Positions 29,601 to 53,113 of a DNA stretch of 64,000 nt are shown piece after piece (position 1 is the first letter of the stretch; each line of letters starts with the position of its first letter). Position numbers and translations under genes: made by a program. The notes beneath the pieces are model-generated. The model was not told the origin of the DNA, searched no databases, and saw only the letters and a list, made by a program, of their open reading frames with translations. This stretch comes from Escherichia coli (GTDB lineage: Bacteria; Pseudomonadota; Gammaproteobacteria; Enterobacterales; Enterobacteriaceae). The DNA lies in assembly GCF_024502345.1 (NCBI RefSeq), contig NZ_JALDNN010000001.1; one strand, written 5' to 3'.

Positions 29601-29746
29601 TACCCCTGATTAAGAAGGTCTTGAATCAGCTCCCGCTCAAGGTCCGATTCGCTCTGGTAACTCTCACCAGTTTCCTGAGCTTTAGAGTACTTATCAAGGA
29701 CGATAAAGTTATTGGATTCAGCAATAGTATGTGTCTGTTGTGTCAT
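26630..29746 (-). CDS. hsdR: Type I restriction enzyme R subunit (HsdR)
   Basis: 1038 aa; DEAD/DEAH-type helicase motifs (TGSGKT, DECH) in an HsdR-like architecture. Confidence 0.9.
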
Positions 29747-29861
29747 GGTGCATCCTGTGCGTCATCTGGCAAAGTCCGGAAGGGTATCAGAAACATCATC
29801 CGGCACTCGTAAAGCCTGATACCGGTAGGTGAAAGCAGACACTGCCGGTATCAGTGGCCTG

Positions 29862-31087
<1,226 letters not shown>

Positions 31088-31091
<4 letters not shown>

Positions 31092-32644
31092 TTCTGCACC
31101 TCGCAGCCTTCAATTTCAGCCACAATCGCATCAATATCTTTGCGCAACTGGTCGATTTTGCTGACCGTGGTTTTCAGCTCTGCATTCAACTCAGCGATAT
31201 CGATAATTTCGCGAGTATCTTTCGCTTCCACATAGCTGCTCACCGACAGGTTATAGTCATTCGCGACAACAGTCTCAAACGCAACAGATTTCGCCAGATG
31301 AGCAACATCTTCCTTGCTGGCAAATACCTGCATAATTTGTTCGATATGGGCATCGGTCAGGATATTGTTGTTGGTCTCTTTTTTGAATAGTTCACTGGCG
31401 TCAATAAACTGAACTTTGGTATCGGTTTTATGTTTAGACAACACCAGAATATTGACGGCAATAGTGGTGCCAAAGAACAGGTTCGGTGCCAGTGAAATCA
31501 CGGTTTCGACATAGTTATTGTCAACCAGGTACTGTCGGATTTTCTGCTCTGCACCGCCACGGTAAAAAATACCGGGGAAGCAAACTATTGCTGCACGCCC
31601 TTTAGCAGACAGGTAGTTCAGCGCATGTAGGACAAATGCAAAGTCCGCTTTTGATTTCGGGGCCAGTACACCAGCTGGAGCAAAGCGCTCATCGTTAATC
31701 AGGGTCGGGTCGTCACTGCCAATCCACTTAACCGAGTACGGCGGGTTAGAGACAATCGCATCGAACGGTTTTTCATCGCCAAAGTGAGGCTCAGTCAGGG
31801 TATTCCCCAGTCTGATATCAAATTTGTCGTAGTTGATGTTGTGCAGGAACATGTTCATACGCGCCAGGTTAAAGGTTGTATGATTTATCTCCTGACCATA
31901 AAAACCTTCTTCAATGATATGGTTATCAAAGTGCTTCTTCGCCTGAAGCAGCAGTGAACCAGAGCCAGCGGCAGGGTCATAGATTTTGTTGACGTGAGTC
32001 TGACCGTGCATCGCAAGCTGAGCAATCAGCTTGGAGACGTGCTGAGGTGTGAAGAACTCCCCTCCAGACTTACCGGCATTTGCCGCATAGTTAGAAATCA
32101 GGAACTCGTAGGCATCACCAAACAGGTCAATCTGGTGCTCGTTAAAATTCCCCAGGTTAAGCCCTTCAACGCCTTTCAGAACGGCGGCAAGACGGCTGTT
32201 TTTGTCTTTAACTGTGTTACCCAGTCGATTGCTGGTCGTATCGAAATCGGCGAACAGGCCTTTGATGTCGGCCTCGGACGGATAGCCGTAGGCAGAGCTT
32301 TCTATAGCGACGAAGATACTATTTAAATCAGCATTCAGCCTGTCGTTGGTGTTCGCTTTAGCGGCAACGTTGCAGAACAGCTGGCTCGGGTAGATGAAAT
32401 AGCCTTTAGTCCTGATGGCATCGTCTTTGATGTCATCGGTAATGATGCTGTCATCAAGTGCTGCATAATGTATGCTCTCATCCCCTGCTTCCATGTAGCT
32501 GGAAAAATTCTCACTGATGAAGCGGTAGAAAAGTGCACCGAGTACATACTGTTTAAAATCCCATCCATCTACTGAGCCCCTGACATCATTGGCAATGGCC
32601 CAGATTTGACGGTGTAGCTCTGCACGCTGTTGAAGGCTTGTCAT
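31088..32644 (-). CDS. hsdM: Type I R-M N6-adenine DNA methyltransferase subunit (HsdM)
   Basis: 518 aa with NPPY catalytic motif ([10 protein letters not shown]); stop overlaps hsdS start. Confidence 0.9.
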
Positions 32645-32847: not shown

Positions 32848-34725
32848 TCAGTCGGTGAGAATTTCTTCATCCGTATCCATTGTGGATGGTGATGAATCTA
32901 TTTTTGTTGTAAGAAATACCCGATTCAGTAGTCTTTGCTTCAGGGCGTTTCTTCGCTCATTGTAGAATTCCGGGAAGTGACTGAACTCAATATTTTCATC
33001 TGAAACTAACAGCATTGATGGCGAATAGTTGTTTGATGGCTGAGATAGCCATTGTTTCAGGGAAGTATCCTGTTTACTTATATTCTGAGAGTGATTCAGT
33101 AAATGAAGATTCGGTATGGTGTCCCAGTATTCCGGATTTTCATAAAAGCTGAGCTTCTCAGGTGAATTCGCAATATAATCTAGTTTTTCAAGATATTTCT
33201 TTGAAAAATGATTTCTTGGGTGAAGGTGATCAATATGAAATACCTCGGTTGGATTCATTTCAGGGAACAGAAGATGCAATAGTGCGCGGCAACGACCTTC
33301 GCCATATCTGATATTGAGAAGGCTTTCGATGTATTCGTCGTCAAATCTGAGGTCTTTATTCGAGCCTTTATATCTGTCAATAATCTTTTCAAGAGGAAAG
33401 TGAATATCTGAAAGACTATTTTTCATTACCTCTCTGATACTCGTGAGTAGCGCATCTGCCTGGCTTCCAAAGATCCCTTTCAGAAGTACCATGTAAAACC
33501 ACTGGCTAATTACTGAGCGTTCATTGTGGTTTTTATTCAGGAGGTTAATCGTTGTATATAATGGATGTCCACTGGTTTGCTTTTTGTAAAGCCAGTAGAC
33601 CACAGGAATGACTGCATTTTTAGATATCAAAGACTGTGGATTGATGCCGAATCGCCTGATAAGAATAAAGGTCTCCTTGATACAGGATTTTATTTCAGAC
33701 CATTGTTGTTGTATCTTACCGACCTCCTCTGAAGTGAAGTTTTTTACTTTGAACCGGACGTCAGAGTCAATAAGCATCAGGCTGGTTTTTAAGAACCAGT
33801 CTCTTTCAATATAAAAACCCATTTCATTATTCTGATAAATGTTTTTTGTCAGTTCATCCAGTTCTCTTCTGAAATCCCCCTGCCAGTGCGCTACCGCTAT
33901 TGACATCAGTAAGTCTGAAAACTCAAGTTTTGTCCCCCCGCTGTTCGTGCGGATGAAAACATCCAGCACATGATCAATGTCCTGACTGCTCTCATTGAAG
34001 TAGTGGATAAGATTCTCAGTTCTTATCTTGGTATAAAGTTTAAGCAGAGTTTTTCTGGAAAATTCACTGGAAATGAGATCTCTTTTTTCAAGTTCTGGTA
34101 CGACAACGTTAAATAAAATATCATCAGGCGAATCATGTTGCTCGTATTTGAATATTTCGTGCAGGCAGAACCAGTGATGTTTGTTGTCTGTAAGTGAATC
34201 AGCGTATTGCTTGTCGGTCAGGAACCTGAAGTTATACTTCATCATGAGTTCGTCGTCTGACTTAAGTGGCGCGGTTAAATCGACGTAAAGCTTTCTGGGC
34301 GGCAGGATGCGATCATCCTGTGCCGAAGGCCACCACATCCGGGGCTGTTTATACGCATACGTTCCACACAATCCAATATATAATGATGTGAGACGCTGCT
34401 GACCATCAATCACCGCTTTGAAATCATGAAATCCAGCATTTGTTGCTACGCAGGGGTTTTCTTCATTAAATCGCTGACAGTATTCTTTCAGGAATTCATA
34501 GAATTTGTAATCATTTTTAATACTGGCACTACGGATATCCCACATCATGAAAGAGTTTATCGGGTAGTCTCGCATGATGGAATCAAACAGCAAACATATC
34601 TGACTGCTGCTCCAGACGAACTTCCTCTGAATTGCAGGCAGAAGATAGTGGCGTAAATTAATTGAATCTATCGCTTGTTTTATCGTTATTGCTTTTTCAT
34701 ACTGGCCAGCCATCATAAACCTCAT
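32848..34725 (-). CDS. DUF262 (ParB/GmrS-like) plus DUF1524 (His-Me finger, GmrD-like) two-domain protein; candidate Type IV (modification-dependent) restriction or defense nuclease
   Basis: 625 aa; N-terminal ...IQRKFVW...VIDGQQRLTSLYIGL; C-terminal HIDHLHPRNHFSKK; AT-rich coding sequence. Confidence 0.75.
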   Translation of the reverse strand: MRFMMAGQYEKAITIKQAIDSINLRHYLLPAIQRKFVWSSSQICLLFDSIMRDYPINSFMMWDIRSASIKNDYKFYEFLKEYCQRFNEENPCVATNAGFHDFKAVIDGQQRLTSLYIGLCGTYAYKQPRMWWPSAQDDRILPPRKLYVDLTAPLKSDDELMMKYNFRFLTDKQYADSLTDNKHHWFCLHEIFKYEQHDSPDDILFNVVVPELEKRDLISSEFSRKTLLKLYTKIRTENLIHYFNESSQDIDHVLDVFIRTNSGGTKLEFSDLLMSIAVAHWQGDFRRELDELTKNIYQNNEMGFYIERDWFLKTSLMLIDSDVRFKVKNFTSEEVGKIQQQWSEIKSCIKETFILIRRFGINPQSLISKNAVIPVVYWLYKKQTSGHPLYTTINLLNKNHNERSVISQWFYMVLLKGIFGSQADALLTSIREVMKNSLSDIHFPLEKIIDRYKGSNKDLRFDDEYIESLLNIRYGEGRCRALLHLLFPEMNPTEVFHIDHLHPRNHFSKKYLEKLDYIANSPEKLSFYENPEYWDTIPNLHLLNHSQNISKQDTSLKQWLSQPSNNYSPSMLLVSDENIEFSHFPEFYNERRNALKQRLLNRVFLTTKIDSSPSTMDTDEEILTD

Positions 34726-34786
34726 ATGTTATATTAGCTGGCCTATTTTAATTTATTGCGTGTCGGTAGTACAGTCTTTGCACAAA

Positions 34787-35116
34787 CTAATTTATGCAAT
34801 GGAAAAGCTGACGGCTCGGTTTGTGTTTTTCATTCGGGTAGACTCGCATTGCGGATGCACAAAGTGATGAAACCTGTCTTGCTATATTTTTACCGAAGTT
34901 AACAAGAAGGCCGTGCTTTATTTTTTCACCCTCTGCCCTGATGCTGATGATAAAGCTGAACTGATATACGATTACCTCAATGAGGTCATTGCCAAATGTT
35001 ATAATGGCGGCGTTGTTTATTTCATGTTCATAATCCCTCAGGTCAGTGTTAAGTCTTGCTGTTGCATCTACAAGTGCGTATTCTTTATCGATAATCATAA
35101 CTTTCTCACTTATCAT
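34787..35116 (-). CDS. Small hypothetical protein between the WYL regulator and the DUF262/DUF1524 gene
   Basis: ORF of 109 codons co-oriented with flanking genes; start uncertain (MISEKV or MIIDKEY); no family recognised. Confidence 0.3.
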   Translation of the reverse strand: MISEKVMIIDKEYALVDATARLNTDLRDYEHEINNAAIITFGNDLIEVIVYQFSFIISIRAEGEKIKHGLLVNFGKNIARQVSSLCASAMRVYPNEKHKPSRQLFHCIN

Positions 35117-35156
35117 GTTAATGTGATTTAATCATCACTAATAATATGTTGTGATT

Positions 35157-35870
35157 TTAATTACGATTATTCGTCTGTTTACTCCCGTAATGCATTATCT
35201 TATGAATAATGTTCATGTGGGGTAAGGCTTCCATAAAGTCAGACTGTTCAATCAGCGAAATGAGTGTGTTATCGATCTCAAACGTTGTATCCGGTAATAC
35301 CTCAACCAGCCTGATTCGGGACAGGGAAATAACGAACACGCCCGATGACGTACATCCGGCAAGAAACCACTCCGCATGGCTGCAAAGCAGACGGTAGGGA
35401 TGAACGGTATGGCTGACGTTTTCGTCGGTTCTGATACGCACCTGGGTCTGGTTAAGTATGGCGAGCGTCAGTCTGCTGAAATCACCGAAAAGGGTGGGTT
35501 TCTGGCGCGGCTCCGGTAGCATAATCCTGTATGGCGAGGGACGTTCCCCGTCAAGCATCAGGCTCAGTAGTTTGGCATCCATCGCGGGTAACAGACGGTC
35601 AAGATGCAGCAACCTCGCCAGTATCTTCATATCCCGTTCCGTGCGGCGACGAAAGTAATGTGAGGCAAGCTGATACACGCCGTTGCTCTGTTCAATATCA
35701 AGGTAGGTCAGACGGACGTTGAAATCCCGTCGCAGCGTTCGCGTCGTCACTCCAAATTCTTCTGCCAGCGTCCCGATATGCAGCTTTTCACCCTGAAACA
35801 AACGGCTCAGGATGATGGAAAGGCGGGTTGCCAGTCTGTCATGTTCGTTTTCTTGTGTTATCAGCGTCAT
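35157..35870 (-). CDS. HTH plus WYL-domain transcriptional regulator (YfjR / BrxR-like)
   Basis: 237 aa; N-terminal HTH LHIGTLAEEFGVTTRTLRRDFN, C-terminal ligand-binding-type region. Confidence 0.7.
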   Translation of the reverse strand: MTLITQENEHDRLATRLSIILSRLFQGEKLHIGTLAEEFGVTTRTLRRDFNVRLTYLDIEQSNGVYQLASHYFRRRTERDMKILARLLHLDRLLPAMDAKLLSLMLDGERPSPYRIMLPEPRQKPTLFGDFSRLTLAILNQTQVRIRTDENVSHTVHPYRLLCSHAEWFLAGCTSSGVFVISLSRIRLVEVLPDTTFEIDNTLISLIEQSDFMEALPHMNIIHKIMHYGSKQTNNRN

Positions 35871-35871
35871 A

Positions 35872-35930
35872 CATCATTTCCGAATTTAGCCGGGAAATGA
35901 TGCCAGCAGTAGCGGACAGGATTTGTCCGC
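35872..35930. promoter_or_regulatory. Two inverted repeats immediately upstream of the WYL regulator start (candidate operators)
   Basis: catcatttcc-N11-ggaaatgatg at 35872-35902 and gcggaca-ggatt-tgtccgc at 35911-35929. Confidence 0.4.
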
Positions 35931-35972
35931 CCTCTGAAGTTTTTTAAAGTCTGAATACCTTAAATGTAAGTG

Positions 35973-36266
35973 CTAAACGTCAGTATTCTCAGGTGAATAA
36001 AGATGCTTCTGGCGCATGTAGGCAATAAAAATGCAGGATGGTAGCGTCACCCGGTATGCGGGACCGGCTAAATCAATCAGCAGCCAGAGAGAACTGAGCA
36101 CCCAGCCCACGGGACCGGCAAAAGCGCCCATGGTACGCGTCAGCATGGCATTTCCTGCAACGGTCAGCCCTCTGCCTAACAGGGCTTTCGCCACACCATT
36201 TGTGACAACAAGTGCCATCTGATAGGCCGCAAACCCGGATGTTTTAATCCCCGCCTGGATTGCCAT
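35973..36266 (-). CDS. Hypothetical membrane-associated protein; possibly the 3' half of a frameshifted gene
   Basis: 97-aa ORF starting 2 nt after the stop of the upstream ORF, different frame. Confidence 0.3.
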   Translation of the reverse strand: MAIQAGIKTSGFAAYQMALVVTNGVAKALLGRGLTVAGNAMLTRTMGAFAGPVGWVLSSLWLLIDLAGPAYRVTLPSCIFIAYMRQKHLYSPENTDV

Positions 36267-36268
36267 GG

Positions 36269-36589
36269 TCAGCAGCTCCGGCGTGGGATTGCTGTATCGC
36301 AGACGATACCGAGCAGGAGATACCAGCCATCATCAAGTGCGGTGACGTATTCCGGGTTAGCCAGTGCCACTGCCAGCAGCGGGTCTTCGGGGAGTGTGTC
36401 ATCGTGGTTGAGATGCCAGAGCAGGGTTCCCGTTTCGTTCCAGAAGGCGGTAAACAGGTCGATATCATCGACAGGGCCAAGGATTTCATTGCTGAGGGCC
36501 ACCAGTGCGGAGGCGGGCAGGTTGAGAAGGGGAAGACTGGTGGGAGTCGTGAGTTTAAACATGATTATCTCCATAAGTAATTGATTCAT
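36269..36589 (-). CDS. Hypothetical protein; possibly the 5' half of a frameshifted gene
   Basis: 106-aa ORF immediately upstream of 35973-36266 on the same strand. Confidence 0.3.
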   Translation of the reverse strand: MNQLLMEIIMFKLTTPTSLPLLNLPASALVALSNEILGPVDDIDLFTAFWNETGTLLWHLNHDDTLPEDPLLAVALANPEYVTALDDGWYLLLGIVCDTAIPRRSC

Positions 36590-37081
36590 ATTGATAATAT
36601 GTTTTCAAATGACTTTTAGTTACATTTTTTTTACGTTGTTTGCTTATTTTGGATTATGTCCTTAAATTTAGTAGTGGGCTGGCGTTAAATCCCGTTTTTT
36701 TTCCGATTTGCAGCATTTTGTAAGCAAATTAGCATGAGCTGTTTTAACTGAAAATGAGAGAAGGCTTGCGCACAATTGCTATTGATTTTCTTACTTATTT
36801 TCTCAATCACAAAACGCCTTAAATAGTTCAAAAAACAATCAACACCCCATAATCGATATTATTTATGGGGAGAAACGACGTTTAAGCCTGAAAGTGGGGG
36901 AGTGGCACTTTCAGGAGATTAAGGAGGCAAACAGGCCTCTTTAACGCGTGTTTTTCTCACCAAAATGTCAGAGTCGGTGATTTGCACTTCAGTATTTCTG
37001 CCAATACTATTCGCTCCATGTGCTGGCCAGCATCTAACTCAATACCCTTAATCTGTATTAATTGAGCGAGATGTATGCATT

Positions 37082-38404
37082 ATGAAACCCGATAGTTCTT
37101 TAAACCAAATAACGCAGACAATGAAACGGAATGATGTTGATTCTGTGGATAGTCGCTTTTTTGAGTCAGCGCAAAACATGAAAACCAGCGTTGACGTTGA
37201 AGATTGCTGCGTTGAAGTGATGGTTCGACATCACAGCCCAAAGAATCAAAGAGAGGCATTCACTAAAGCTTTTTTTGATGAGTGTAAAATCCGTGCAGTA
37301 CAAACTGGCCGGACTATCGAAGCCAGCGATACAAAATGTACCGGGCTTAAGGCTATATTCCACTCATCCGGACGCATTAAGTTTATTGTCCGCAAAAGTA
37401 TTCGCGGAAAGAATGTTTACGTTGCAGTAGGAAGTTACCCTGAATTTTCCATTAATAACGCAAGGGAACATGCCTTTAAAATAATTCAGGAGCTTAAGGC
37501 TTCCGTTGAGACTTATGGTGAGCGTTTTCTTACGCACAGCAAAATAACGTTTAATGAACTTGTGGAACAGTATGTGAAATGCGTACTTAACACGGGCGTT
37601 AAGCGTTCAGCTAACACCGACCTTTCTAAGATCCGTAAATACCTGCGCCCTCTTCTCGGTGACAAAAAGCTGGCAGGTATGACGGAGGCAGATGTTCTGA
37701 GCTATCTACACGATCTCGATCTTAAGCCTGCCACACGCAACCGCCACCTGGCGCTCATTAAAGCGGTCTTTACCTGGGCTATACGCATGGGATACACCAG
37801 CCGCTCTCCGGCGCTTTATATCAAAGCGCTGCCTGAAGTGACGTCAGATCGCCGCGCCATGGATGACTCCCAGCTTCAGCGCTGGATGGAAGTCTGTGAG
37901 TGCTGGCGTAATGGTAAACCCGATCATGAAGCCCTTGCTCTGCTCATGTTCCTTGCCCTGACGGGGCTGCGTCTGGGGGAAACCCGTCACCTTCGTCTTG
38001 AAGATGTGGACTGGAGCCGCAAGGTTATCACCCTTCGCCATACCAAAAACGGCAAACTCCGCCGTGTACCGGTATGTGATAAGGCTTTCGTTCTTCTGAC
38101 AGAACAGCGTCAGCATCTGGGTGATGAAGGCTGGGTATTTCCGGGCAAGGGGACCGACAATCCGGTTTCTGAGCCGCGTCGCCTGCAAAAACGGCTTTGT
38201 GAGGCTGCGGGTATTCCACCGTTCACCATCCATGAGATGCGCCATACCTTTGCGACAAAACTCATTGAGAGCGGGGCCGACATTCACACCGTCAAAGACT
38301 TACTGGGCCACAGCACTATCAAAGTGACGGAGCTTTACTTGCACGCTTCCCCGGCGCGTTACCACGAAGCTGTTAACCGGGCGATGAATGTTTTTCCGGC
38401 CTAA
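37082..38404 (+). CDS. Tyrosine site-specific recombinase / integrase (not P4-type)
   Basis: 440 aa; C-terminal catalytic signature ...FTIHEMRHTFATKLIESGADIHTVKDLLGHSTIKVTELYLH. Confidence 0.8.
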   Translation: MKPDSSLNQITQTMKRNDVDSVDSRFFESAQNMKTSVDVEDCCVEVMVRHHSPKNQREAFTKAFFDECKIRAVQTGRTIEASDTKCTGLKAIFHSSGRIKFIVRKSIRGKNVYVAVGSYPEFSINNAREHAFKIIQELKASVETYGERFLTHSKITFNELVEQYVKCVLNTGVKRSANTDLSKIRKYLRPLLGDKKLAGMTEADVLSYLHDLDLKPATRNRHLALIKAVFTWAIRMGYTSRSPALYIKALPEVTSDRRAMDDSQLQRWMEVCECWRNGKPDHEALALLMFLALTGLRLGETRHLRLEDVDWSRKVITLRHTKNGKLRRVPVCDKAFVLLTEQRQHLGDEGWVFPGKGTDNPVSEPRRLQKRLCEAAGIPPFTIHEMRHTFATKLIESGADIHTVKDLLGHSTIKVTELYLHASPARYHEAVNRAMNVFPA

Positions 38405-38476
38405 ACAGAATTCCCCCTCAGGCAAGTGAGTTCTGCGCTTTACTGCCTGTGGTTCACATTCAAAAGGAACCTGTAA

Positions 38477-39172
38477 ATGAATAATAAATCAACACCATCC
38501 CCCTTGACTACAACGACCCCCGCTCGTTTTGCCTGCAGGAAATTAAATGCATTTCTGGCTCGTCGTGCTCTTCATATGAAGGTGGTAAGAAAAAACCTGA
38601 ACAAGGCTGCTGCAATCGACATCGATCTCGATGACATTTCTAAGTGCGGATGCCGTGATGGTCTGCCTGAAGGCTTTGTCAATACTGCAAAAGGGCTTTT
38701 CTATTATGAAGGAAAAAAATGGTACCAGTTAAGCTCGACCCCCATTCTCCCTGTCTACAGGCATTATTCTGATTGTAAAACGCGCAATATGGGCGTCGAG
38801 TTGATGACTATCAACCATGCTGGAGAGTTCGCCTGTGCTGATGTCTCATTAAGTGATGCAATGGTAAAACCTGATCACGTCATGGCTTCTCTGGCGGGCA
38901 AAGGTTTTGGTATCTCCCTGACGATAAAGTCTAAAGAGCTTCTGGTGCAATTCTTACAGGTGTGTATGAAGAAATCGCTGGAATTGCCTACTTATCTTGT
39001 CGCAGATTCGATGGGTTTTGTGCCTGGCAACAAAGCATTTCTTCACGGCAGTATACCTATCGCGCAGCACCTTTTGGAATTTGACTATTTGATTCCGGCT
39101 TCCCGTGTTCCACGAGGGCTTGTCGAGTCGGGAACGCTGGATGACTGGAAAACGATGGTACCTGTGAAATGA
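38477..39172 (+). CDS. Hypothetical protein downstream of the integrase
   Basis: 231-aa ORF with AAGGA-type SD; 3' end overlaps convergent ORF 39085-39468. Confidence 0.4.
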   Translation: MNNKSTPSPLTTTTPARFACRKLNAFLARRALHMKVVRKNLNKAAAIDIDLDDISKCGCRDGLPEGFVNTAKGLFYYEGKKWYQLSSTPILPVYRHYSDCKTRNMGVELMTINHAGEFACADVSLSDAMVKPDHVMASLAGKGFGISLTIKSKELLVQFLQVCMKKSLELPTYLVADSMGFVPGNKAFLHGSIPIAQHLLEFDYLIPASRVPRGLVESGTLDDWKTMVPVK

Positions 39173-39468
39173 ATCCATTCTGATTCACCGAAGTCACTGG
39201 TCTGGTGTGACAGCGAGTACAGCCAGGCGTTATCCTTTTCCGTGATATGTGCGGTACTGCAGCGTATGCCGGCAAGGGTTGCAAACGGTGGTAGTGTGCA
39301 GGTTGACTGTTGGTCGGATTCCTCCACCACGCGGAGTGAATAACCGTTTTCAGCGACCTTGTTAATCAGTTCAGTGAGATTAACACCATCGACATCAACG
39401 ACAATTCGCCCCATGTTCAGTGCCTGCACATTAATGCTGTCGGCTTCCAACGTCAGGGCCAGTTTCAT
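39085..39468 (-). CDS. Hypothetical small protein downstream of the WYL regulator
   Basis: ATG at 39468 preceded by GGAGG; C-terminal extent uncertain because of overlap with 38477-39172. Confidence 0.4.
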   Translation of the reverse strand: MKLALTLEADSINVQALNMGRIVVDVDGVNLTELINKVAENGYSLRVVEESDQQSTCTLPPFATLAGIRCSTAHITEKDNAWLYSLSHQTSDFGESEWIHFTGTIVFQSSSVPDSTSPRGTREAGIK

Positions 39469-39577
39469 TGTTTCGCCTCCGGATGCTTCCCCTGGGTAAT
39501 GTTATTTACCGTTCTGTAGTTATCGCGGGTCATCAGGCCGGTTGCCCTGCGAGCCCGGAGAATATCAATACTGTTTA

Positions 39578-40228
39578 TTAACTGAGAGCGGGTAAGGACT
39601 GAATAAATCCCGGGTCTTCAACAAGACGACACAGACTGTCGTTACGCCGGAAAGTCTCCTGCAGGGGCTGAACCAGATGGATTTCATCCAGGGAGAATAC
39701 GGCGATATGTCCGTCGTGCTCTGCCACCAGATACCAGGCCTGCTGGTGGATAAGTAACCGGCAGGGAGCCAGCCGCTCACAGCGCTGCCCCTCGGCAATC
39801 AGAGTCACCCGCCTGCGCCCGGTAATGGCCTGAATCAGTCGCCAGAAAGACAATGCGCCTGATGGCGAAGGAGCCGGACTGGCGGGTGCGATTACGCAGG
39901 GAGACTCATCGCACATCAGCAGTGCGTTTACCAGACGACGGTCAAAGCCAGGGAAAAGACCGGCCATCCCGCTGCGGTGGGCAAAGATAAGCACGTCGGG
40001 CACCATCTGCGTCTCACTGCCCGCAGTGCGTAAGCGGTAATATCCGGACTGATACTCCAGGTCCAGATACATCAGCCGCTCACGAAAATCACGCCGCAGC
40101 GTGCGCACCGACACACCAAACTCAGCGGCAAGCTTACGCACACTCAGCGTTTCCCCTGCCACCAGACGGCTGATTATCAGTGACAGCCTGACAGCCAGCC
40201 GGTCATGGCGGCGTTCTGCCTGTGTCAT
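39578..40228 (-). CDS. HTH plus WYL-domain transcriptional regulator (YfjR-like), paralog of 35157-35870
   Basis: 216 aa; [28 protein letters not shown]; same architecture as the first WYL regulator. Confidence 0.7.
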
Positions 40229-40444
40229 GAGACGTTCTCCGTGAAAGTTAACTGACTGAAAATGATGTGATTACTTTAAAGAGGGGGTCGGACAGGGTAT
40301 GGACACCACAGAAACTATTTTTCATTTCTGCAAAAGCCAGAGGCAGCGGGGGTTACAGGCCTTCCCTCGGTGAGTGAGGACCGTCAGCACGGTGCGATGC
40401 GGACAGGTGGTGTCCGATATTAACAAAGCAGCAACATTAAACGG

Positions 40445-41266
40445 TCACTGCAGTTGCGTGAGCAGGGCTTCCGCCATCACCCACAGTGCCCGGTTAAGTT
40501 TCACGTCCCCGTCGATACCGCGAACGGCACGGGTATGTGACCGTCCTCCTTTGGCATTACGGCCACTGAGCCCGCCCTTAATCAGGTTCTCCTGAATACG
40601 CTGGTACGTGGTCCACAGGTCATTGCTCTCATCCTGCCAGCGGCGAGGGGAGAGGATCTGCGATTCAGTCACCGGCTGGTGGTCTTCACCAAAGCGGTAT
40701 GTGAGGGCGGCTTTTGCCAGTGCCTGCTGTGCCGGGGGTGGCAACAGCAACGACTGCATGGCATCCCGTTTCTCCTCCACCCGGTCAAAAATCCCCAGCA
40801 CCTCATACGCGCCTTCAATCACCTGACTCACCACGTCCCCCTTGTGTGGCACCCGCACCTCGCCAAACGACTCACCGCAGACGAGCCCGTTCTGACAAAC
40901 CGCACGAAATAGTCCCGGCAACATCTGATACGAACTAGTGCCATCGTGGGAGTTGAGCAGGATAATTTCTGGTACCTGTTTACCGGTAATCTGCCCCTCA
41001 CGCCGCAGACGCAGCATATGCTTTGTATGTTCACGACGACCGGGGTCACGCACGCGGGTCTGACAGGCAAAGAATGGCTGGAAGCCTTCTCGCTGTAGGC
41101 TGTCGAGCAGGGAGATGGTAGGTATATAGGTATAACGCTCACTGCGGGATTCATGTTTGTCCTCGCTGAATACACTGGGCACCACGCGAAACAGCTCCTC
41201 ACGGGTTAACGGGCGGTCGCGACGGATAAGGTTTGCTGCGCCAAAGCGCGAAGCCAGACGGGTCAT
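40445..41266 (-). CDS. DUF932-family protein (YfjQ-like)
   Basis: 273 aa from MTRLASRFGAANLIRRDRPLTREELF; sits in the YfjP-YfjQ-YfjR order of CP4-type islands. Confidence 0.6.
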   Translation of the reverse strand: MTRLASRFGAANLIRRDRPLTREELFRVVPSVFSEDKHESRSERYTYIPTISLLDSLQREGFQPFFACQTRVRDPGRREHTKHMLRLRREGQITGKQVPEIILLNSHDGTSSYQMLPGLFRAVCQNGLVCGESFGEVRVPHKGDVVSQVIEGAYEVLGIFDRVEEKRDAMQSLLLPPPAQQALAKAALTYRFGEDHQPVTESQILSPRRWQDESNDLWTTYQRIQENLIKGGLSGRNAKGGRSHTRAVRGIDGDVKLNRALWVMAEALLTQLQ

Positions 41267-41357
41267 AAGCAGACTCCTCATAATGGGAAAACAAATAAAA
41301 GAAATCCCCGTCGCATCGGCGACAGGGTTAGGGAAATAACAGGGATGGGTTAAATAC

Positions 41358-42221
41358 TCAGAAGAAGAAATCCCAGACGGCACGGGCCACTGACACCACG
41401 GTGGTGCGCACGGCCTGAATGACGGCCCGCACCGGGGCGGGGATCAGGGGAAAGGCACTGATGCTATCGAGTACAGCACCGACGGTTTCACCAAAATCGC
41501 TACGCGCCTGTTCCCGGACTACCGTCGTGCGAAAGGAAGGCTGGAGTTGCGACACCACCGGGCTGGTGGCCTCACGTGGCAGGCACTTAATCATTCGCTC
41601 GGCCATCACCCGCAGTCCCCACTGAAGACGGACCGACACGGCACACACTGGATGTACGGGCTGGAACAGCTCATGCAGCAGGCAGATTTTGCGGCTGATA
41701 TTCTGCTTCTGCGCCGTGGACAACTGTCCCCCACCGCTGGTAGGTTCGGCCTTATCCGACTGGCTGATAACAAACAGCACCTTATGCCGGTATACCTCTC
41801 CAATCACCTGATGATAAAAATGTTCATCCACCGTCAGCGCCCGGTCATCGGCCTTAATCAGCCACAGTACCAGGTCGAGGCGAGGAAGCTGTTCGCGGTA
41901 CAGCGCAGCATACTCGGTATCGCGAGCACCACTTTCGCCCACGCCGGGCAGATCCATCAGCGTTATATAGCGGTCGCCAACCTGCAGGCGAAAGCGCAGT
42001 GGCTCACGTGTACAGGCCGCCACATCGCTGACCGGTGATACCTCACTGGCAAACAGGGCATTGCAGAGTGAGGATTTACCGGCACCGCTCTTACCCATAA
42101 TGCCGATCACTGGCTCGTAGCGGGTTAACTGATTTATCTGCTGCAATATACGTTCAGACACCCACTGTGGCAGACCAGCGAGCGATTGCTGAAACGGCTT
42201 CAATCCTTCAGAATTGTTCAT
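41358..42221 (-). CDS. YfjP/YeeP/YkfA-family GTPase
   Basis: 287 aa from MNNSEGLKPFQQ; P-loop GIMGKSGAGKSSL and DLPG motif. Confidence 0.7.
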   Translation of the reverse strand: MNNSEGLKPFQQSLAGLPQWVSERILQQINQLTRYEPVIGIMGKSGAGKSSLCNALFASEVSPVSDVAACTREPLRFRLQVGDRYITLMDLPGVGESGARDTEYAALYREQLPRLDLVLWLIKADDRALTVDEHFYHQVIGEVYRHKVLFVISQSDKAEPTSGGGQLSTAQKQNISRKICLLHELFQPVHPVCAVSVRLQWGLRVMAERMIKCLPREATSPVVSQLQPSFRTTVVREQARSDFGETVGAVLDSISAFPLIPAPVRAVIQAVRTTVVSVARAVWDFFF

Positions 42222-42327
42222 TACTACTCCTCTGAAAAATAATACAAAAACGGCAGAATCGTGAGATTCCACCGTTAATCTGGTATGTTCAAAGGGATGA
42301 TATATATCTGAAAATTATTAACTTGAT

Positions 42328-43254
42328 CTACTTTTTGTCTTTTTTACGTGATGAAACAGCCTGCAGCCAAGCATGCTTCATTTTCTGAATAAAGAAATAT
42401 TTTTCTTCAACTCCAGTGTCCCAACTATCCATGCATGCAATGATCATCTGTATTCTCATTGCAGTGTTATATGGTTTTAAATAAAAGGGGATCATATTTT
42501 TATTTCTCAGATACTCCCAGCAATAGATAGCTTGCTTTTCATCTTTTTTATCTAGCCAGTCATAATCAGTAAGAAATGTATTATATTGCTCTAGCCATTT
42601 ATCATGCAACTTACGAAAATAGGAAATTTTCTGACTTAAACTTACAGGAGCTAAATCAATAAACCTCATCAAAGTACAAATGCGTTCTTGTTCGGATGTT
42701 GTATTCGGGCTGTAGTTGTCGGGATCTGCGCCAGATGTTAAATAAAATCTACGCGAGTATTTTTCAGGTATATCTCTATTTTTTTCTTTATTGCTAGGGG
42801 AGGTTCCCACCTGCATTTCGGCTTGTACTTCATCAAGTGAGAAATTTTTAATTTCATCAATGTTTATAAATTCAAAAAAGGATGCAGGAGTTGAGTTCGG
42901 GTTGTAAATATTATCTTGTGCAAAGATATTCACGCTCGAGGAGGTTTCAGGACTGATTCTGTTGTTATATATATACATTAAGGCAAACCACGATCCTCTA
43001 TCAGAACCTTTGAAACAATCGAACTTCTCTTTGTCAATGATTTTGTAATGGAACTGTTTTTTCAAGTAAGTACGCGCACTTTGTATTGCTTCATTATTGA
43101 ATAGGAATTTAGTGTTCAATATATGATTAATGAGTTTTTGAAATTCCTCAGGCGTGTCGAAATTACTCGCCTGCTTAATGTAATCTTCGTTGTAATACAG
43201 ACTCAGAACGTAAAGGGAAAAGAACTCCTCTCTCACTTCGTCATACCTAAGCAT
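42328..43254 (-). CDS. Hypothetical low-GC 308-aa protein, Asn/Lys/Tyr/Phe-rich
   Basis: Long ORF in strongly AT-rich DNA, first gene of the co-oriented block containing the YfjP/YfjQ/WYL genes. Confidence 0.5.
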   Translation of the reverse strand: MLRYDEVREEFFSLYVLSLYYNEDYIKQASNFDTPEEFQKLINHILNTKFLFNNEAIQSARTYLKKQFHYKIIDKEKFDCFKGSDRGSWFALMYIYNNRISPETSSSVNIFAQDNIYNPNSTPASFFEFINIDEIKNFSLDEVQAEMQVGTSPSNKEKNRDIPEKYSRRFYLTSGADPDNYSPNTTSEQERICTLMRFIDLAPVSLSQKISYFRKLHDKWLEQYNTFLTDYDWLDKKDEKQAIYCWEYLRNKNMIPFYLKPYNTAMRIQMIIACMDSWDTGVEEKYFFIQKMKHAWLQAVSSRKKDKK

Positions 43255-43572
43255 GTACCCTCCAGTGTGATATCACATCTGTCCGATGCTTTCAAAAGTA
43301 TAAATGAACCATGATGATTTGGCATCTGCAAGGTGACTGTTGACTGGTTTTTTGCTGATTTTTTAATGATAAAGTAGTGATTACTAACTGATTAGTAAGT
43401 GATTAATGGCTGGTTGCCTCCTGTGATTTTTCTGCCTCTGGTAAATTGGGGGAGAGTACTGATCAACTCACCACTCTGAATAATTTTCATGATTGCACTC
43501 TACAAAGTTTCGACATCCGTCAAATTGTAACGGTCAGAGAACAGCGTTACACGAGGTTTTCCGTATCTATGC

Positions 43573-44629
43573 GGCTTTGTTGAATAAATCGAACTTTTGC
43601 TGAGTTGAAGGATCAGATCACGTATCTTCCCGACAACGCAGACCGTTCCGTGGCAAAGCAAAAGTTCAAAATCACCAACTGGCCCACCTACAATAAAGCC
43701 CTCATCAACCGTGGCTCCATAACTTTCTGGCTGGATGATGAAGCTATTCAGGCCTGGTATGAGTCAGCAACACCTTCTTCACGAGGCAGACCTCAGCGCT
43801 ATTCTGACCTTGCCATCACGACTGTGCTGGTCATTAAACGCGTATTCAGGCTGACCCTGCGCGCTGCGCAGGGCTTTATTGATTCCATTTTTTCTCTGAT
43901 GAACGTTCCGCTACGCTGCCCGGATTACAGCTGTGTCAGCAGGCGGGCAAAGTCGGTTAATGTCAGTTTCAAAACGCCCACCCGGGGTGAAATCGCACAC
44001 CTGGTAATTGATTCCACCGGGCTGAAGGTCTTCGGTGAAGGCGAGTGGAAAGTCAAAAAGCATGGCCAGGAACGCCGCCGTATCTGGCGTAAGCTGCATC
44101 TCGCCGTTGACAGTAAAACACATGAAATCATCTGCGCTGACCTGTCGCTGAACAACGTTACGGACTCAGAGGCCTTCCCCGGGTTAATCCGGCAAACCCA
44201 CCGGAAAATCAGGTCAGCCGCCGCCGATGGCGCTTACGATACCCGGCTATGTCACGATGAACTGCGGCGTAAGAAAATCAGCGCGCTTATCCCTCCCCGA
44301 AAAGGTGCGGGTTACTGGCCCGGTGAATATGCAGACCGTAACCGTGCAGTGGCTAATCAGCGAATGACCGGGAGTAATGCGCGGTGGAAATGGACAACAG
44401 ATTACAACCGTCGCTCGATAGCGGAAACGGCGATGTACCGGGTAAAACAGCTGTTCGGGGGTTCACTGACACTGCGTGACTACGATGGTCAGGTTGCAGA
44501 GGCTATGGCCCTGGTACGAGCGCTGAACAAAATGACGAAAGCAGGTATGCCTGAAAGCGTGCGTATTGCCTGAAAACACAACCCGCTACGGGGGAGACTT
44601 ACCCGAAATCTGATTTATTCAACAAAGCC
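43573..44629 (+). mobile_element. IS903-group (IS5 family) insertion sequence, complete, 1057 bp, no target-site duplication
   Basis: Terminal inverted repeats GGCTTTGTTGAATAAATC at 43573-43590 and 44612-44629; flanking 9-mers tatctatgc vs actgtgttt differ. Confidence 0.9.
43605..44573 (+). CDS. IS903-type transposase
   Basis: 322-aa ORF MKDQITYLPDNADRSVAKQKFKITNWPTYNKALINRGSITFWLDDEAIQAWY... with DDE motif region. Confidence 0.9.
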   Translation: MKDQITYLPDNADRSVAKQKFKITNWPTYNKALINRGSITFWLDDEAIQAWYESATPSSRGRPQRYSDLAITTVLVIKRVFRLTLRAAQGFIDSIFSLMNVPLRCPDYSCVSRRAKSVNVSFKTPTRGEIAHLVIDSTGLKVFGEGEWKVKKHGQERRRIWRKLHLAVDSKTHEIICADLSLNNVTDSEAFPGLIRQTHRKIRSAAADGAYDTRLCHDELRRKKISALIPPRKGAGYWPGEYADRNRAVANQRMTGSNARWKWTTDYNRRSIAETAMYRVKQLFGGSLTLRDYDGQVAEAMALVRALNKMTKAGMPESVRIA

Positions 44630-45024
44630 ACTGTGTTTATCAAATTCCATGCCCTTTTTGCTGCTTAATTTTAAATGACACTCTGATCATGCACCGTGAT
44701 TGAAATAAGTTATAGCCACCCCTTAATCATTTTTTTCAGACGACATTAACTTCGGAGTAAATAATTTAACACAATGAAATATCAAACCGCATCTGGCCTG
44801 AATGTTGAGTATTAATACGTGACGGATTGTTAATATATATCAGTACATAAACCCCAATATTCCAGTAATACACACCTACACAATACACACCAAGCAATTT
44901 AGTCAGCATCACCCAACTAACATCCAACACAAACTCAATAAGCCAGATTTGATACCACCTAATTACCTCAACCATCGCGGGTAAGGTTCCGTCCTGCCCG
45001 ATATTCAGATCACAGGAATCTATT

Positions 45025-45636
45025 ATGCTTAATGATATTTATCTTGACCAACGTCATGCCCCATTCAATACAACGTATTTGCAACGGATGCTGGGTGTAA
45101 TTGATAACGCTATAGCACAACACCCAAGGACAATGGCTGTCCGTGTCGATCTACGTCTGCCTGATGACAACTGTAATAGGAATAGTGGTCTGATATCCCG
45201 TTTCATTGAATCGCTTAATGCAAAAATCGATGCTCGGTACCGAAATAAAATAAAGAATGGCATCAGGAGCTACCCATGCCAGTTGCGTTACGCCTGGGTT
45301 CGGGAAGTGGGAGAAATAAACGAGAAGTCCCATTACCACATGGTACTTTTCGTGAACAAAGACACATTCAATGGACTTGGGAGCTATGGAGAAGGGGGAA
45401 CGGGATTAGCCAGCCTGATACGTGAAGCCTGGCTGAGCGCTTTGCAACTAGGCCCTTACCCCGAATACCGAACGTTGGTCCACATCCCGGACAACCCATT
45501 GTATTACCTGGACGTCAATAATTTAGACTACAAAACGGTTTACGATAAACTCACTTTCAGGCTGAGTTATTTTGCGAAAGAGCGCACCAAGTCATACAGC
45601 CGAGATGAACGCTCGTTTGGCTGCAGTCAGTCCTGA
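45025..45636 (+). CDS. YagK/YfjJ-family protein (inovirus Gp2-like), CP4-type island backbone
   Basis: 203 aa; MLNDIYLDQRHAPFNTTYLQRM...YHMVLFVNKDTF pattern recalled for YfjJ/YagK. Confidence 0.55.
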   Translation: MLNDIYLDQRHAPFNTTYLQRMLGVIDNAIAQHPRTMAVRVDLRLPDDNCNRNSGLISRFIESLNAKIDARYRNKIKNGIRSYPCQLRYAWVREVGEINEKSHYHMVLFVNKDTFNGLGSYGEGGTGLASLIREAWLSALQLGPYPEYRTLVHIPDNPLYYLDVNNLDYKTVYDKLTFRLSYFAKERTKSYSRDERSFGCSQS

Positions 45637-45871
45637 GGCAAAACAAACTAAGTCTATAAAGATTTTTTCAGCCTGGCTCTAATCGACTGAATCTCAGCAT
45701 ACTCCGCTTTTGAAGCCTTGACACGTCAGTTGTTCTTTCACCTCTGAGTGGCTACTCGCGACTGCCTGCAGGAGACTGATTATGTTATTGACCGCAAAAT
45801 CCATTAACTGACTTTTCGACTTAATCTCCTTAAGTTATGTGAGAAATTTGCCGATATGAAAACATGATCCT

Positions 45872-45908
45872 CCAGTCGCTACTGACATGCCCTGTCAGTA
45901 GCGACTGG
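45872..45908. promoter_or_regulatory. Perfect 16-bp inverted repeat with 5-nt spacer upstream of the HTH gene fragment
   Basis: ccagtcgctactgaca-tgccc-tgtcagtagcgactgg, ~35 bp upstream of the ATG at 45942. Confidence 0.4.
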
Positions 45909-45941
45909 TAATCTCAAGGAAAAATTACAAGGAGAACGCGC

Positions 45942-46176
45942 ATGAGCGGGCATGAGGTAATGGTACAAAGAATAACCGCTATTATTGCAGAACTTTACCA
46001 GTACGGTTTTGTATCACGTAAGAAGATGATGGACGAATTCAACATCAGTGAGCGTACTTTGTATCGTGATCTTAATCGTCTGGGCGACAGAATCGTCCCC
46101 GATGGTGATGGTATTTACAGGCTGGCTCCCGCTTACGCTAAACCTCAGGCTCTAAAAGAACAACAAAATCTCGGCC
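45942..46176 (+). pseudogene. HTH (DeoR-like) regulator gene, 5' fragment (~78 codons), joined without IS to appC
   Basis: MSGHEVMVQRITAIIAELYQYGFVSRKKMMDEFNISERTLYRDLNRL; frame runs into appC sequence at ~46175. Confidence 0.45.
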
Positions 46177-47133
46177 ATGTTTATTATGGCGATCAGCGCC
46201 TGGTATTTACTGCGCGGACGGGAGCGCGATGTCGCATTACGCTCGTTTGCCATCGGTTCCGTCTTCGGTACTCTGGCGATTATTGGCACGCTGCAACTCG
46301 GAGACAGTTCTGCGTATGAAGTCGCGCAAGTACAACCGGTAAAACTGGCGGCGATGGAAGGGGAGTGGCAAACGGAACCTGCACCTGCACCGTTCCATGT
46401 GGTTGCCTGGCCGGAACAGGATCAAGAGCGTAACGCCTTTGCCATCAAAATTCCCGCGCTGCTAGGGATCCTCGCCACTCACTCATTAGATAAACCCGTG
46501 CCGGGTCTGAAGAATTTGATGGCTGAAACCTACCCACGCTTGCAACGCGGACGTATGGCCTGGCTGTTAATGCAGGAAATATCGCAAGGCAATCGTGAGC
46601 CGCATGTGTTGCAGGCATTCCGGGAACTGGAAGGTGACCTGGGCTACGGCATGTTGCTCTCCCGCTATGCGCCGGATATGAATCATGTCACAGCCGCACA
46701 GTACCAGGCGGCGATGCGTGGTGCAATACCTCAGGTTGCGCCGGTATTCTGGAGTTTCCGCATCATGGTGGGCTGTGGTTCCCTGCTGCTACTGGTGATG
46801 CTGATTGCGCTTGTCCAGACGCTGCGTGGCAAAATCGACCAGCATCGCTGGGTGCTGAAAATGGCGCTCTGGAGTTTGCCGTTGCCGTGGATTGCGATTG
46901 AAGCCGGGTGGTTTATGACCGAGTTTGGTCGTCAGCCGTGGGCGATACAGGACATCTTACCGACATACTCCGCGCACTCCGCCTTAACCACAGGACAACT
47001 GGCTTTCTCACTGATCATGATCGTAGGGCTTTACACCCTGTTCTTAATCGCCGAAGTCTACCTGATGCAGAAATATGCCCGTCTGGGGCCGAGCGCGATG
47101 CAGAGTGAACAACCGACGCAGCAACAGGGGTAA
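46177..47133 (+). pseudogene. appC: Cytochrome bd-II oxidase subunit I (AppC/CbdA), 3' portion only (~318 of ~514 codons)
   Basis: C-terminal AppC sequence ...WIAIEAGWFMTEFGRQPWAIQDILPTYSAHS...; N-terminal heme-binding half absent. Confidence 0.8.
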
Positions 47134-52417: not shown

Positions 52418-53113
52418 TCAACAATCCTCAATAATCAGATATACCGCCTTCACCGGACCATGCACCCCAACCACCTTGATAAGCTCAATATCCGCCGTCG
52501 AGCTGGGTCCACTGATGATATTAATGCACGATGGCATACGCTCACCGGCCTGTGCTTTCTGATGCAGTTTTTCTGCCAGCTGCGCCACGCGCGGCAGGAT
52601 GGTGCTTTTACGCAGCACGAAAATAGAGGACTCCGGCAACAGGCTCAGGGAGCGCCCGCGCTCCGGTGCGGAAAACAGCACCACGCCGCCGGACTCGGTC
52701 AGGCCATATTCGGCATACACCACGCCGACTTTCGCCTGCTCGGCCTGGGTAATATTTTCGCTACCACGCGCCGGATCCCAGACCACGGCGTTGCATTCCT
52801 GCTGCAAGCGTTCGGTGATGCCCAGCTCCACCAGCCGGCTGTCGCCGCTCAGCACCACCGGCTGCTGACCCAATTCTTCGCACAGGCGCAGTGCCGCGTC
52901 TGCGGCCTGGTCCTCGCTGGTCAGTTCGCAGCGGGCCAGCATCACTTCGCTGGCAAACTGGATAAACGCAGAGCAGCGCTGCTCGGGGCTAAGCTCGGTC
53001 AGGCGCTCGTTGGCATAGTTGTTAACCGGTGCGGCATCCGCTTGCGGTTCGAAGCGCAGCGGGCGACCCAGCGCCTGGGCGATGGTGTTTAAAAACGCGG
53101 TACGGTTATCCAT
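52418..53113 (-). CDS. ykgG: LutC-like lactate utilization protein YkgG
   Basis: 231 aa from MDNRTAFLNTIAQALGRPL; overlaps ykgF stop. Confidence 0.85.
   Translation of the reverse strand: MDNRTAFLNTIAQALGRPLRFEPQADAAPVNNYANERLTELSPEQRCSAFIQFASEVMLARCELTSEDQAADAALRLCEELGQQPVVLSGDSRLVELGITERLQQECNAVVWDPARGSENITQAEQAKVGVVYAEYGLTESGGVVLFSAPERGRSLSLLPESSIFVLRKSTILPRVAQLAEKLHQKAQAGERMPSCINIISGPSSTADIELIKVVGVHGPVKAVYLIIEDC

Follow-up and report, generated by a model that had tools for sequence, protein, structure and literature searches.

Introduction

Transcription factors that join a winged helix-turn-helix (wHTH) to a WYL domain include both activators and repressors. DriD of Caulobacter crescentus, whose domains run wHTH-3HB-WYL-WCX, is an activator triggered by single-stranded DNA (ssDNA); it recognises ATACGAC-N7-GTCGTAT, regulates its own promoter and has two sites at the bapE promoter. 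DriD sites overlap the position of an absent -35 element at a constant distance from the -10 hexamer; in the didA probe the arrangement is TGTCGC-N10-CAATCT, and the 'optimised -35' of the DriD authors lies 17 bp from the hexamer CAATCT. PafBC of mycobacteria acts by 'sigma adaptation' as a heterodimer, with one HTH on the DNA and the other on sigma; the consensus of its promoters is tGTCgg(N10)tA(N3)T, with HTH contacts at -23 to -28 and no -35 element. The repressor BrxR (Escherichia fergusonii pEFER, Acinetobacter) has operators with arms of 10-11 bp and a 5 bp spacer, which in E. fergusonii lie downstream of the predicted -10, while the CapW palindromes, of 19-24 bp, overlap the -10. Here we describe a stretch of 64,000 nucleotides of the E. 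coli chromosome (contig NZ_JALDNN010000001.1, assembly GCF_024502345.1), called the window below, in which two genes for WYL regulators, WYL1 (35157-35870) and WYL2 (39578-40228), both on the minus strand, are preceded by sequences built on a 15-bp box, GGAC-N7-GTCC, that is very probably a binding site shared by both regulators.

WYL2 is an orthologue of YfjR, one of the transcription factors of E. coli K-12 for which neither a site nor a function is known. The K-12 gene, in the CP4-57 prophage (b2634), is intact and followed by ypjK-yfjS-yfjT, unlike WYL2, of which an internal deletion in the island has left only the first 213 of 233 residues. A review table gives the target of YfjR as the 'yfjR operon', chromatin immunoprecipitation with exonuclease digestion (ChIP-exo) on unstressed K-12 found no YfjR binding sites, and a published survey predicted no promoter for yfjR. 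Our search of the literature for a YfjR operator or binding motif, for a promoter layout such as the one described here, or for WYL regulators in CP4-type islands found none in searchable papers. An initial annotation of the window had pointed to four sequence elements upstream of the two genes, had proposed from a recurring half-site, CGGACAGG, that both paralogues bind related operators in the manner of BrxR-type regulators, which autoregulate through inverted repeats, and had raised the possibility of cross-regulation.

Results

The box upstream of WYL1 and WYL2

All four elements lie where they had been placed. Upstream of WYL1, the box at 35912-35930 (minus strand; GCGGACAAATCCTGTCCGC on the coding strand) is an inverted repeat with exact 7-bp arms, which reads GCGGACA-GGATT-TGTCCGC on the plus strand (7/7 complementary) and has its cores, GGACA and TGTCC, at 35928-35924 and 35918-35914. 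Upstream of WYL2 there are two sites on the minus strand. The distal one, annotated as GCGGACAGGTGGTGTCCG at 40399-40416, is an inverted repeat that reaches on to 40417 (TCGGACACCACCTGTCCGC on the coding strand) and stands about 110 bp farther from the gene than the proximal site at 40287-40307 (GTGTCCATACCCTGTCCGAC on the coding strand, first described as GTCGGACAGGGTATGGACACC). The proximal site carries its TGTCC copies at 40305-40301 and 40294-40290; in it GGACA is repeated in direct orientation, 11 nt from start to start, and the site is not palindromic. This qualifies the appeal of the initial annotation to inverted repeats. The yfjQ-yfjR spacer of K-12 has the same distal and proximal boxes, together with the hexamer TAAAGT considered below.

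The 8-mer CGGACAGG, taken by itself, does not exceed chance: the window has four copies where 1.47 would be expected, and a count of four was reached in 10 of 100 shuffled sequences. The inverted repeat does, within the same window, since CGGACAGGNNNTGTCCG with up to two mismatches gives six strand-hits against 0.28 expected, a count that none of 100 shuffles reached. The stricter form GGACA-N5-TGTCC is found three times in the 64 kb, where by our own arithmetic about 0.06 would be expected, and two of the three copies are the sites described above. Across 564 kb of fetched loci, exact copies occur only at the orthologous positions and at one coding-region site. The third copy in the window (45128-45142) lies inside a Gp2/YfjJ-like open reading frame (ORF; 45025-45636), and we rejected it as a member of a regulon: the region is coding, its left arm is GAACA in a homologue with 84% identity, and it is best regarded as chance or a by-product of coding. 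The fourth copy of CGGACAGG (53565-53572), far outside both islands in the long ORF 53106-54533, is taken as chance. A search for more island promoters that combine a half-site with a -10 hexamer added only matches at 41725 and 45493, both intragenic.

Conservation of the box at regulator genes

Every WYL1 orthologue that we examined has the box ahead of it; these genes (59-88% protein identity) come from seven further islands, of E. coli, Edwardsiella and metagenomic origin. The spacers ahead of these genes have otherwise diverged, while G[C/T]GGACA-N5-TGTCC[G/A]C is retained about 50 nt before the ATG, and its outer positions change symmetrically, from C...G to T...A. In intact islands of this type a strong terminator is directly followed by a second box, which precedes the DUF3944 gene by about 50 nt; the window lacks this copy, which was removed by the deletion in its first island.

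Conservation extends to about 80 YfjR-type genes (43-100% identity), all with the box upstream at fixed positions. A genome scan gave 58 such loci from about 30 genera (49-97% identity), and in virtually all of them four half-sites stand at fixed positions, as an inverted pair GGACA(Y)nnCCTGTCC(R) at about -187/-177 and a direct pair GTGTCCAT(W)CCCTGTCC at about -78/-67. When 56 distinct spacers were aligned, mean column conservation was 0.85 in the distal site and 0.89 in the proximal site against 0.55 between them, and among eight subfamily representatives pairwise identity was 0.79-0.84 in the boxes against 0.39 between. The distance from distal to proximal site stays at 100-103 nt in 53 of the 56 loci, and the same layout recurs in 20 copies from viral contigs. 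Taken together, these comparisons support the GGACA-N5-TGTCC box as a conserved functional element linked to the regulator gene.

Covariation of recognition helix and box

By the gene tables, the two island types have no regulator family in common other than the WYL regulators. WYL1, of 237 residues, and WYL2 both match the Pfam families HTH_DeoR (E = 6e-6 and 1.6e-5) and WYL (4.6e-4 and 3e-5); overall identity between them is 36%, the wHTH domains are almost the same, and the recognition helix R42-T-L-R45-R46-D47 (RTLRRD) is invariant in both the WYL1 and YfjR subfamilies. A change of one residue in this helix, R to Q, accompanies a change of one base in the box, from GGAC/GTCC to CGAC/GTCG. 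In 83 distinct loci with RTLRRD we counted 70 GGAC-N7-GTCC boxes and one CGAC-N7-GTCG box; in 40 distinct loci with RTLQRD the counts were 0 and 40. The Gln45 relatives include the L099 clade (43% identity), several deeper branches within the clade and a 304-residue protein, P0022 (25-31% identity); in them the promoter layout is unchanged and CGACA-N5-TGTCG stands where the other form would be (L099, L103-L176, L077). For the search that located them, an alignment of seven sequences was too diverse and one of two sequences worked; a search of viral contigs for more relatives with the Q helix gave nothing new. This covariation ties the box to the adjacent regulator.

By spacing, the substituted residue would fall at the helix position of a DNA-contacting residue in a described regulator. 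In the DriD-DNA structure, Arg37 and Arg41 read the two guanines of the G-x-C core and Glu40 contacts the outer C of CGAC, and in PafB residues R46 and R50 read the GTC triplet. R42 and R46 of YfjR have the same i/i+4 spacing as these two pairs, so that by analogy R42, R45 and R46 would correspond to R37, E40 and R41 of DriD, with two arginines four residues apart on the recognition helix and the residue between them facing the outer base. The pairing would then be Glu40 with C in DriD, and Arg45 with G and Gln45 with C in the YfjR family, around a core, GAC-N7-GTC, that the two systems have in common. Because a search with the HTH alone against solved WYL regulators returned no match to DriD, PafB or BrxR, and hence no residue-level alignment, we infer this equivalence from spacing. 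The proposal that both paralogues bind related operators is therefore supported by the conserved footprints, the invariant helix and the R/Q covariation, all of them evidence drawn from sequence.

Fold and domain composition

In an AlphaFold model (predicted local distance difference test score 80), helices at residues 3-23, 30-37 and 41-51, followed by a beta hairpin, form an N-terminal wHTH, and fold matches to the DriD C-domain and to Hfq fit a central WYL domain, an Sm-like beta-barrel. A fold search with the model found CapW, BrxR, DriD and PafBC about equally near (E ~1e-6, 14-20% identity). At the level of sequence, phmmer searches for solved relatives of the WYL regulators found none, and a family profile search of the PDB reached only the WYL domain of PafBC (E = 3e-8). 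Neither WYL1 nor WYL2 has a match to WCX (PF25583), the C-terminal dimerisation domain; relative to P0022, which has this domain, the YfjR family shows a gap of about 58 residues, and only short helices follow the WYL barrel. Since the fold is equally near repressors and activators, homology does not decide the sign of regulation.

Promoter geometry

The half-site nearest the gene stands at a fixed distance from a hexamer that resembles a -10 element. YfjR-type loci have TGTCCN-N10-TAnnnT in 54 of 57 cases, with a hexamer of the form TA(A/G/C)A(G/A/C)T (TAAAGT, TAGAAT, TAAAAT or TACAAT), and the viral-contig copies show it too; in the window the candidate is TAAAGT (40273-40278, minus strand), 10 nt downstream of the promoter-proximal TGTCCG. 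All eight WYL1-type promoters read TGTCC[G/A]-N10-CAT[C/T/G]AT, and here the candidate CATCAT (35897-35902, minus strand) follows TGTCCG by exactly 10 nt. The promoters of the DUF3944 genes have (T/C)AnnnT at N10 in seven cases of eight (TAAACT, TACACT or TATTTT), and more distant relatives have CATAAT, TATACT or TAATCT at this distance. A scan of both upstream regions with the sigma-70 consensus found no promoter and no -35 element; the only TTGACA-like hexamer, (C/T)GGACA, lies by sequence 21 bp from the -10-like hexamer. With the hexamers read as -10 elements, the promoter-proximal half TGTCCR would occupy about -28 to -23 and the other half the place where a -35 would be.

By comparison with published sites, this geometry matches that of the activators DriD and PafBC and is unlike that of the repressors BrxR and CapW. 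As in DriD, the box would cover a missing -35, and TGTCGC-N10-CAATCT of didA can be set beside TGTCCG-N10-TAAAGT, or TGTCCG-N10-CATCAT, at the present loci. The PafBC consensus shares with TGTCCR-N10-TAnnnT the N10 spacing, nearly the same hexamer and the lack of a -35.

Discussion

Our analysis suggests a model for the promoters of YfjR-family regulators. We propose that CGGACAGG is one half of the 15-bp box GGAC-N7-GTCC, that the WYL regulators of the YfjR family recognise this box through their winged-helix domain, and that WYL1 and WYL2 both belong to this family, with the box forming part of the regulators' own promoters. The regulator, probably after its WYL domain has bound ssDNA, would dock on the box and recruit RNA polymerase to an otherwise weak promoter, so that its own gene and those downstream would be turned on. 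We give this chain as a whole, with a DriD/PafBC-like activator docking at the weak promoter of its own gene, an even chance of being correct. The negative ChIP-exo result and the absence of a predicted yfjR promoter fit binding that depends on a ligand and takes place at a non-canonical promoter. A broader reading, in which YfjR-family proteins generally are DriD/PafBC-style ssDNA-triggered activators at -35-less promoters of Enterobacterales and the islands of a cell form one cross-talking regulon, is more tentative, and we put it somewhat below even; the argument for a single regulon per cell is that neither helix nor box differs among dozens of island variants.

None of the described systems is a full match. 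DriD resembles the present family in core sequence, in promoter position, perhaps in its helix and in the regulation of its own promoter that is proposed here for the family, and the two sites of bapE recall the two sites before yfjR. The differences are that DriD is 16-18% identical and alike only by fold, that most of the WCX domain is missing here, that the yfjR-proximal site is a direct repeat with a second box about 110 bp upstream, and that DriD serves a chromosomal DNA-damage regulon, whereas the YfjR family is carried by mobile islands of Enterobacterales and is known from sequence. PafBC is set apart by its two subunits, where the islands have a single gene and a box with two half-sites, and by its actinobacterial host and a regulon of about 150 genes. 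BrxR and CapW share the wHTH-WYL start and are among the top fold matches (E ~1e-6), and, as with them, WYL1 heads a defence island and has a repeat before its own gene, so that autoregulation is expected. BrxR, for its part, has no sequence-level match in either the phmmer or the PDB profile search and resembles the family by fold only, at 17-18% identity; the present boxes have arms of 5-7 bp, placed upstream of the -10-like hexamer, and WCX is largely absent. The analogy drawn earlier with BrxR-type autoregulation is accordingly upheld in part only. What distinguishes the YfjR family among WYL regulators with a cognate box at their own promoter is that it has two sites, of which one is a direct repeat, and that it lacks a WCX domain.

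The alternative that deserves most weight keeps the site and reverses the sign: the proteins would be autorepressors like BrxR and CapW, the unliganded dimer blocking RNA polymerase at the -35 and spacer region and leaving on a signal of phage or DNA damage, with the distal box helping by looping. All the evidence for binding holds equally for such a repressor, a box over about -38 to -23 would occlude polymerase, and WYL1, like BrxR homologues, stands at the head of a defence island, here one with HEC-05 and a type I restriction-modification system. Several observations tell against activation and in some cases directly for repression. The fold search puts the repressors CapW and BrxR and the activators at equal distance, and the family lacks most of the WCX domain found in DriD, CapW and BrxR alike. 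A distal box about 110 bp upstream at constrained spacing is a pattern typical of looping repressors, and a symmetric dimer like DriD would not bind the direct repeat before yfjR symmetrically. The 'yfjR operon' listed as the target, if it comes from in-vitro systematic evolution of ligands by exponential enrichment with unliganded protein, would fit a repressor that can bind DNA with no ligand. The -10 hexamers are assigned from their sequence, and CATCAT at the WYL1 promoter lacks the usual first T; the R/Q covariation, for its part, may rest on as few as two evolutionary switches. We nevertheless regard autorepression as rather unlikely. Published repressor sites overlap or follow the -10, whereas the boxes here lie upstream of it at the distance seen for DriD and PafBC; a promoter with neither a -35 nor an extended -10 would have little basal activity to repress; and ChIP-exo saw no occupancy by YfjR in unstressed cells, in which a repressor should be bound.

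Two further explanations would remove the WYL protein from the box, and we consider both highly improbable. If the inverted repeats acted as RNA or DNA hairpins, stabilising or terminating the transcript of the upstream gene, one could account for a 7-bp stem that folds well, for outer stem positions that change together from C...G to T...A, and for the location of both inverted repeats downstream of a preceding gene. Neither repeat, however, is followed by a T-tract on the coding strand, and we rejected both as intrinsic terminators, the only terminator-like hairpin near WYL2 being that at 40451-40428. Moreover, the core 5 bp are invariant in sequence, beyond what complementarity would require, the equally conserved direct repeat before yfjR cannot pair, a search of 34500-46500 against Rfam families at E up to 1 gave no match, and the box covaries with a residue of the adjacent protein. 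The covariation, being with the WYL protein's own helix, argues equally against the proposal that another island protein binds the box, for example the stand-alone wHTH of 79 residues encoded by intact WYL1-type islands, although its helix, SPRTARRDL, is similar and could read the same half-site. YfjR-type islands have the boxes and show no such gene in the regions examined, and the window, too, has lost the gene and kept the box. We rate this protein as sole reader of the box no higher than the hairpins; instead of taking the place of the WYL protein, it may bind the box alongside it or in competition with it. In strain WCHEC025943 (locus L001) its gene lies at 11628-11867 on the minus strand; it is absent from the window.

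If the activator reading is right, -35-less WYL promoters, known from Caulobacter and mycobacteria, extend to widespread enterobacterial islands, and islands present in one cell would share a signal. On the broader reading YfjR, an orphan regulator of K-12, would gain a target, a signal and a mechanism, and a single ssDNA signal, whether from DNA damage, phage attack or the transfer or replication of an island, would activate jointly the operons for anti-restriction and toxin-antitoxin functions and the genes that head defence islands. The same box stands before the regulator of a second island family, at the head of variable defence cargo. The analysis offers, in the box GGAC-N7-GTCC, a promoter model and the specificity residue R45, points at which these ideas can be tested.

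Whether the two regulators act on each other has a different answer for recognition and for effect. Helix and box are identical in both subfamilies, and each protein should therefore recognise the other's promoters; in this window there is little for such recognition to act on, since WYL2 is truncated and its operon gone, and only an action of WYL1 on the orphan yfjR promoter is plausible. Across the species, E. coli genomes have a median of three copies of this island module, which makes cross-talk among islands likely.

Genomic context and further elements

The window is E. coli chromosome with two adjoining damaged mobile islands. The first carries an integrase gene (37082-38404, plus strand) and a truncated DUF927 gene, and on the opposite strand a DUF3944 remnant, WYL1, an ORF of 109 residues, a DUF262/HEC-05 defence candidate and a type I restriction-modification system. 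Compared with strain WCHEC025943, it has lost 2.76 kb cleanly at 36295/36296 (10598-13353 of L001). The deletion took the 5' part of the DUF3944 gene, the second box and five more genes (hypothetical, small DeoR-like, LRAT, DUF2787 and hypothetical), and its scar is a fused ORF of 106 residues at 36269-36589. Downstream of WYL1 on the same strand, 32848-35116 holds the 109-residue ORF, of unassigned family, and the DUF262/HEC-05 candidate, which is followed by the restriction-modification system at 26630-32644; no terminator-like site was found between WYL1 and the genes of 32848-35116. The small ORF (34787-35116, minus strand; 102-110 residues among islands) follows WYL1 here and in five of the seven other islands, is absent from L003 and L014, and has no match in PADLOC, NCBIfam or PHROGs.

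WYL1 is the last conserved gene of this integrase-bearing island, directly ahead of the variable defence cargo, and its orthologues hold the same position in all seven other islands. The cargo behind the orthologues (L003-L016) is different in every island and therefore WYL1 marks the edge of a variable cargo region. The types seen are type I restriction-modification, HEC-05, an AAA_23 ATPase with a DUF676-like protein, genes related to Hcp and the type VI secretion system, fimbrial genes and an N6/N4 methyltransferase.

The second island, an element of the CP4-57 type, has its genes in the order GTPase (yfjP-like), DUF932 (yfjQ-like), WYL2. An internal deletion of about 3.5 kb (2464-6000 of locus L002) joined yfjR to the 3' part of the cbtA toxin gene; WYL2 is thereby short of its last 20 residues, at the C-terminus, and the downstream operon is deleted. 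The full-length relative used for comparison, from strain G3/10, is 94% identical to K-12 YfjR. In YfjR-type islands the regulator gene precedes anti-restriction, RadC-like and CbtA toxin-antitoxin genes and not phage-defence genes; the latter, HEC-05/DUF262 and type I restriction-modification, adjoin WYL1 only. Positions 39159-39604 hold fragments of DUF5983 and cbtA-toxin genes from the same YfjR-type island, and the DUF927 gene of the first island, truncated at about 39164, adjoins them.

A second palindrome, CATCATTTCC-N11-GGAAATGATG (35872-35902, minus strand), lies between the WYL1 box and the gene, with 10/10 complementary arms at 35872-35881 and 35893-35902. Its upstream arm covers the -10-like CATCAT, and its downstream arm covers a Shine-Dalgarno-like GGAA and the ribosome-binding region, stopping 1 nt before the ATG. 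Closer orthologues retain it with a few two-sided changes, and L009 has lost it. We rejected it as a conserved RNA hairpin, the consensus structure being weak (-2.6 kcal/mol, one compensatory pair); as RNA it would pair into a hairpin only where transcription reads through from upstream.

Each box is preceded, at a distance of about 10 nt, by an A-rich tract. Before WYL1 it is an A6 tract (T6 on the plus strand) at 35940-35945, minus strand, a candidate UP-like element about 10 nt from the box, and A/T-rich stretches occur at the matching place in WYL1 orthologues and in the yfjR promoter. There the tract AAAAATAGTT (40313-40322, minus strand), upstream of the proximal site, forms near-invariant columns in the 56-sequence alignment and might serve as an UP-like element or a bend.

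Two further conserved blocks flank the yfjR promoter. The element TTTTCAGTCAGTTAAC (40248-40263, minus strand), in the presumed 5' leader of yfjR, is a conserved block in the 56-spacer alignment and strongly conserved in all YfjR subfamilies; a palindromic TTCAGTCAGTTA / GTCAGTTACTGAC resembling it lies upstream of the Hafnia relative L012 (3868-3885). The distal box follows closely on the terminator-like hairpin that belongs to the DUF932 gene (40451-40428), and immediately upstream of the box, at 40418-40445, the sequence TGTT-N8-TGTTAATA, which overlaps this hairpin, is conserved in most YfjR-type subfamilies.

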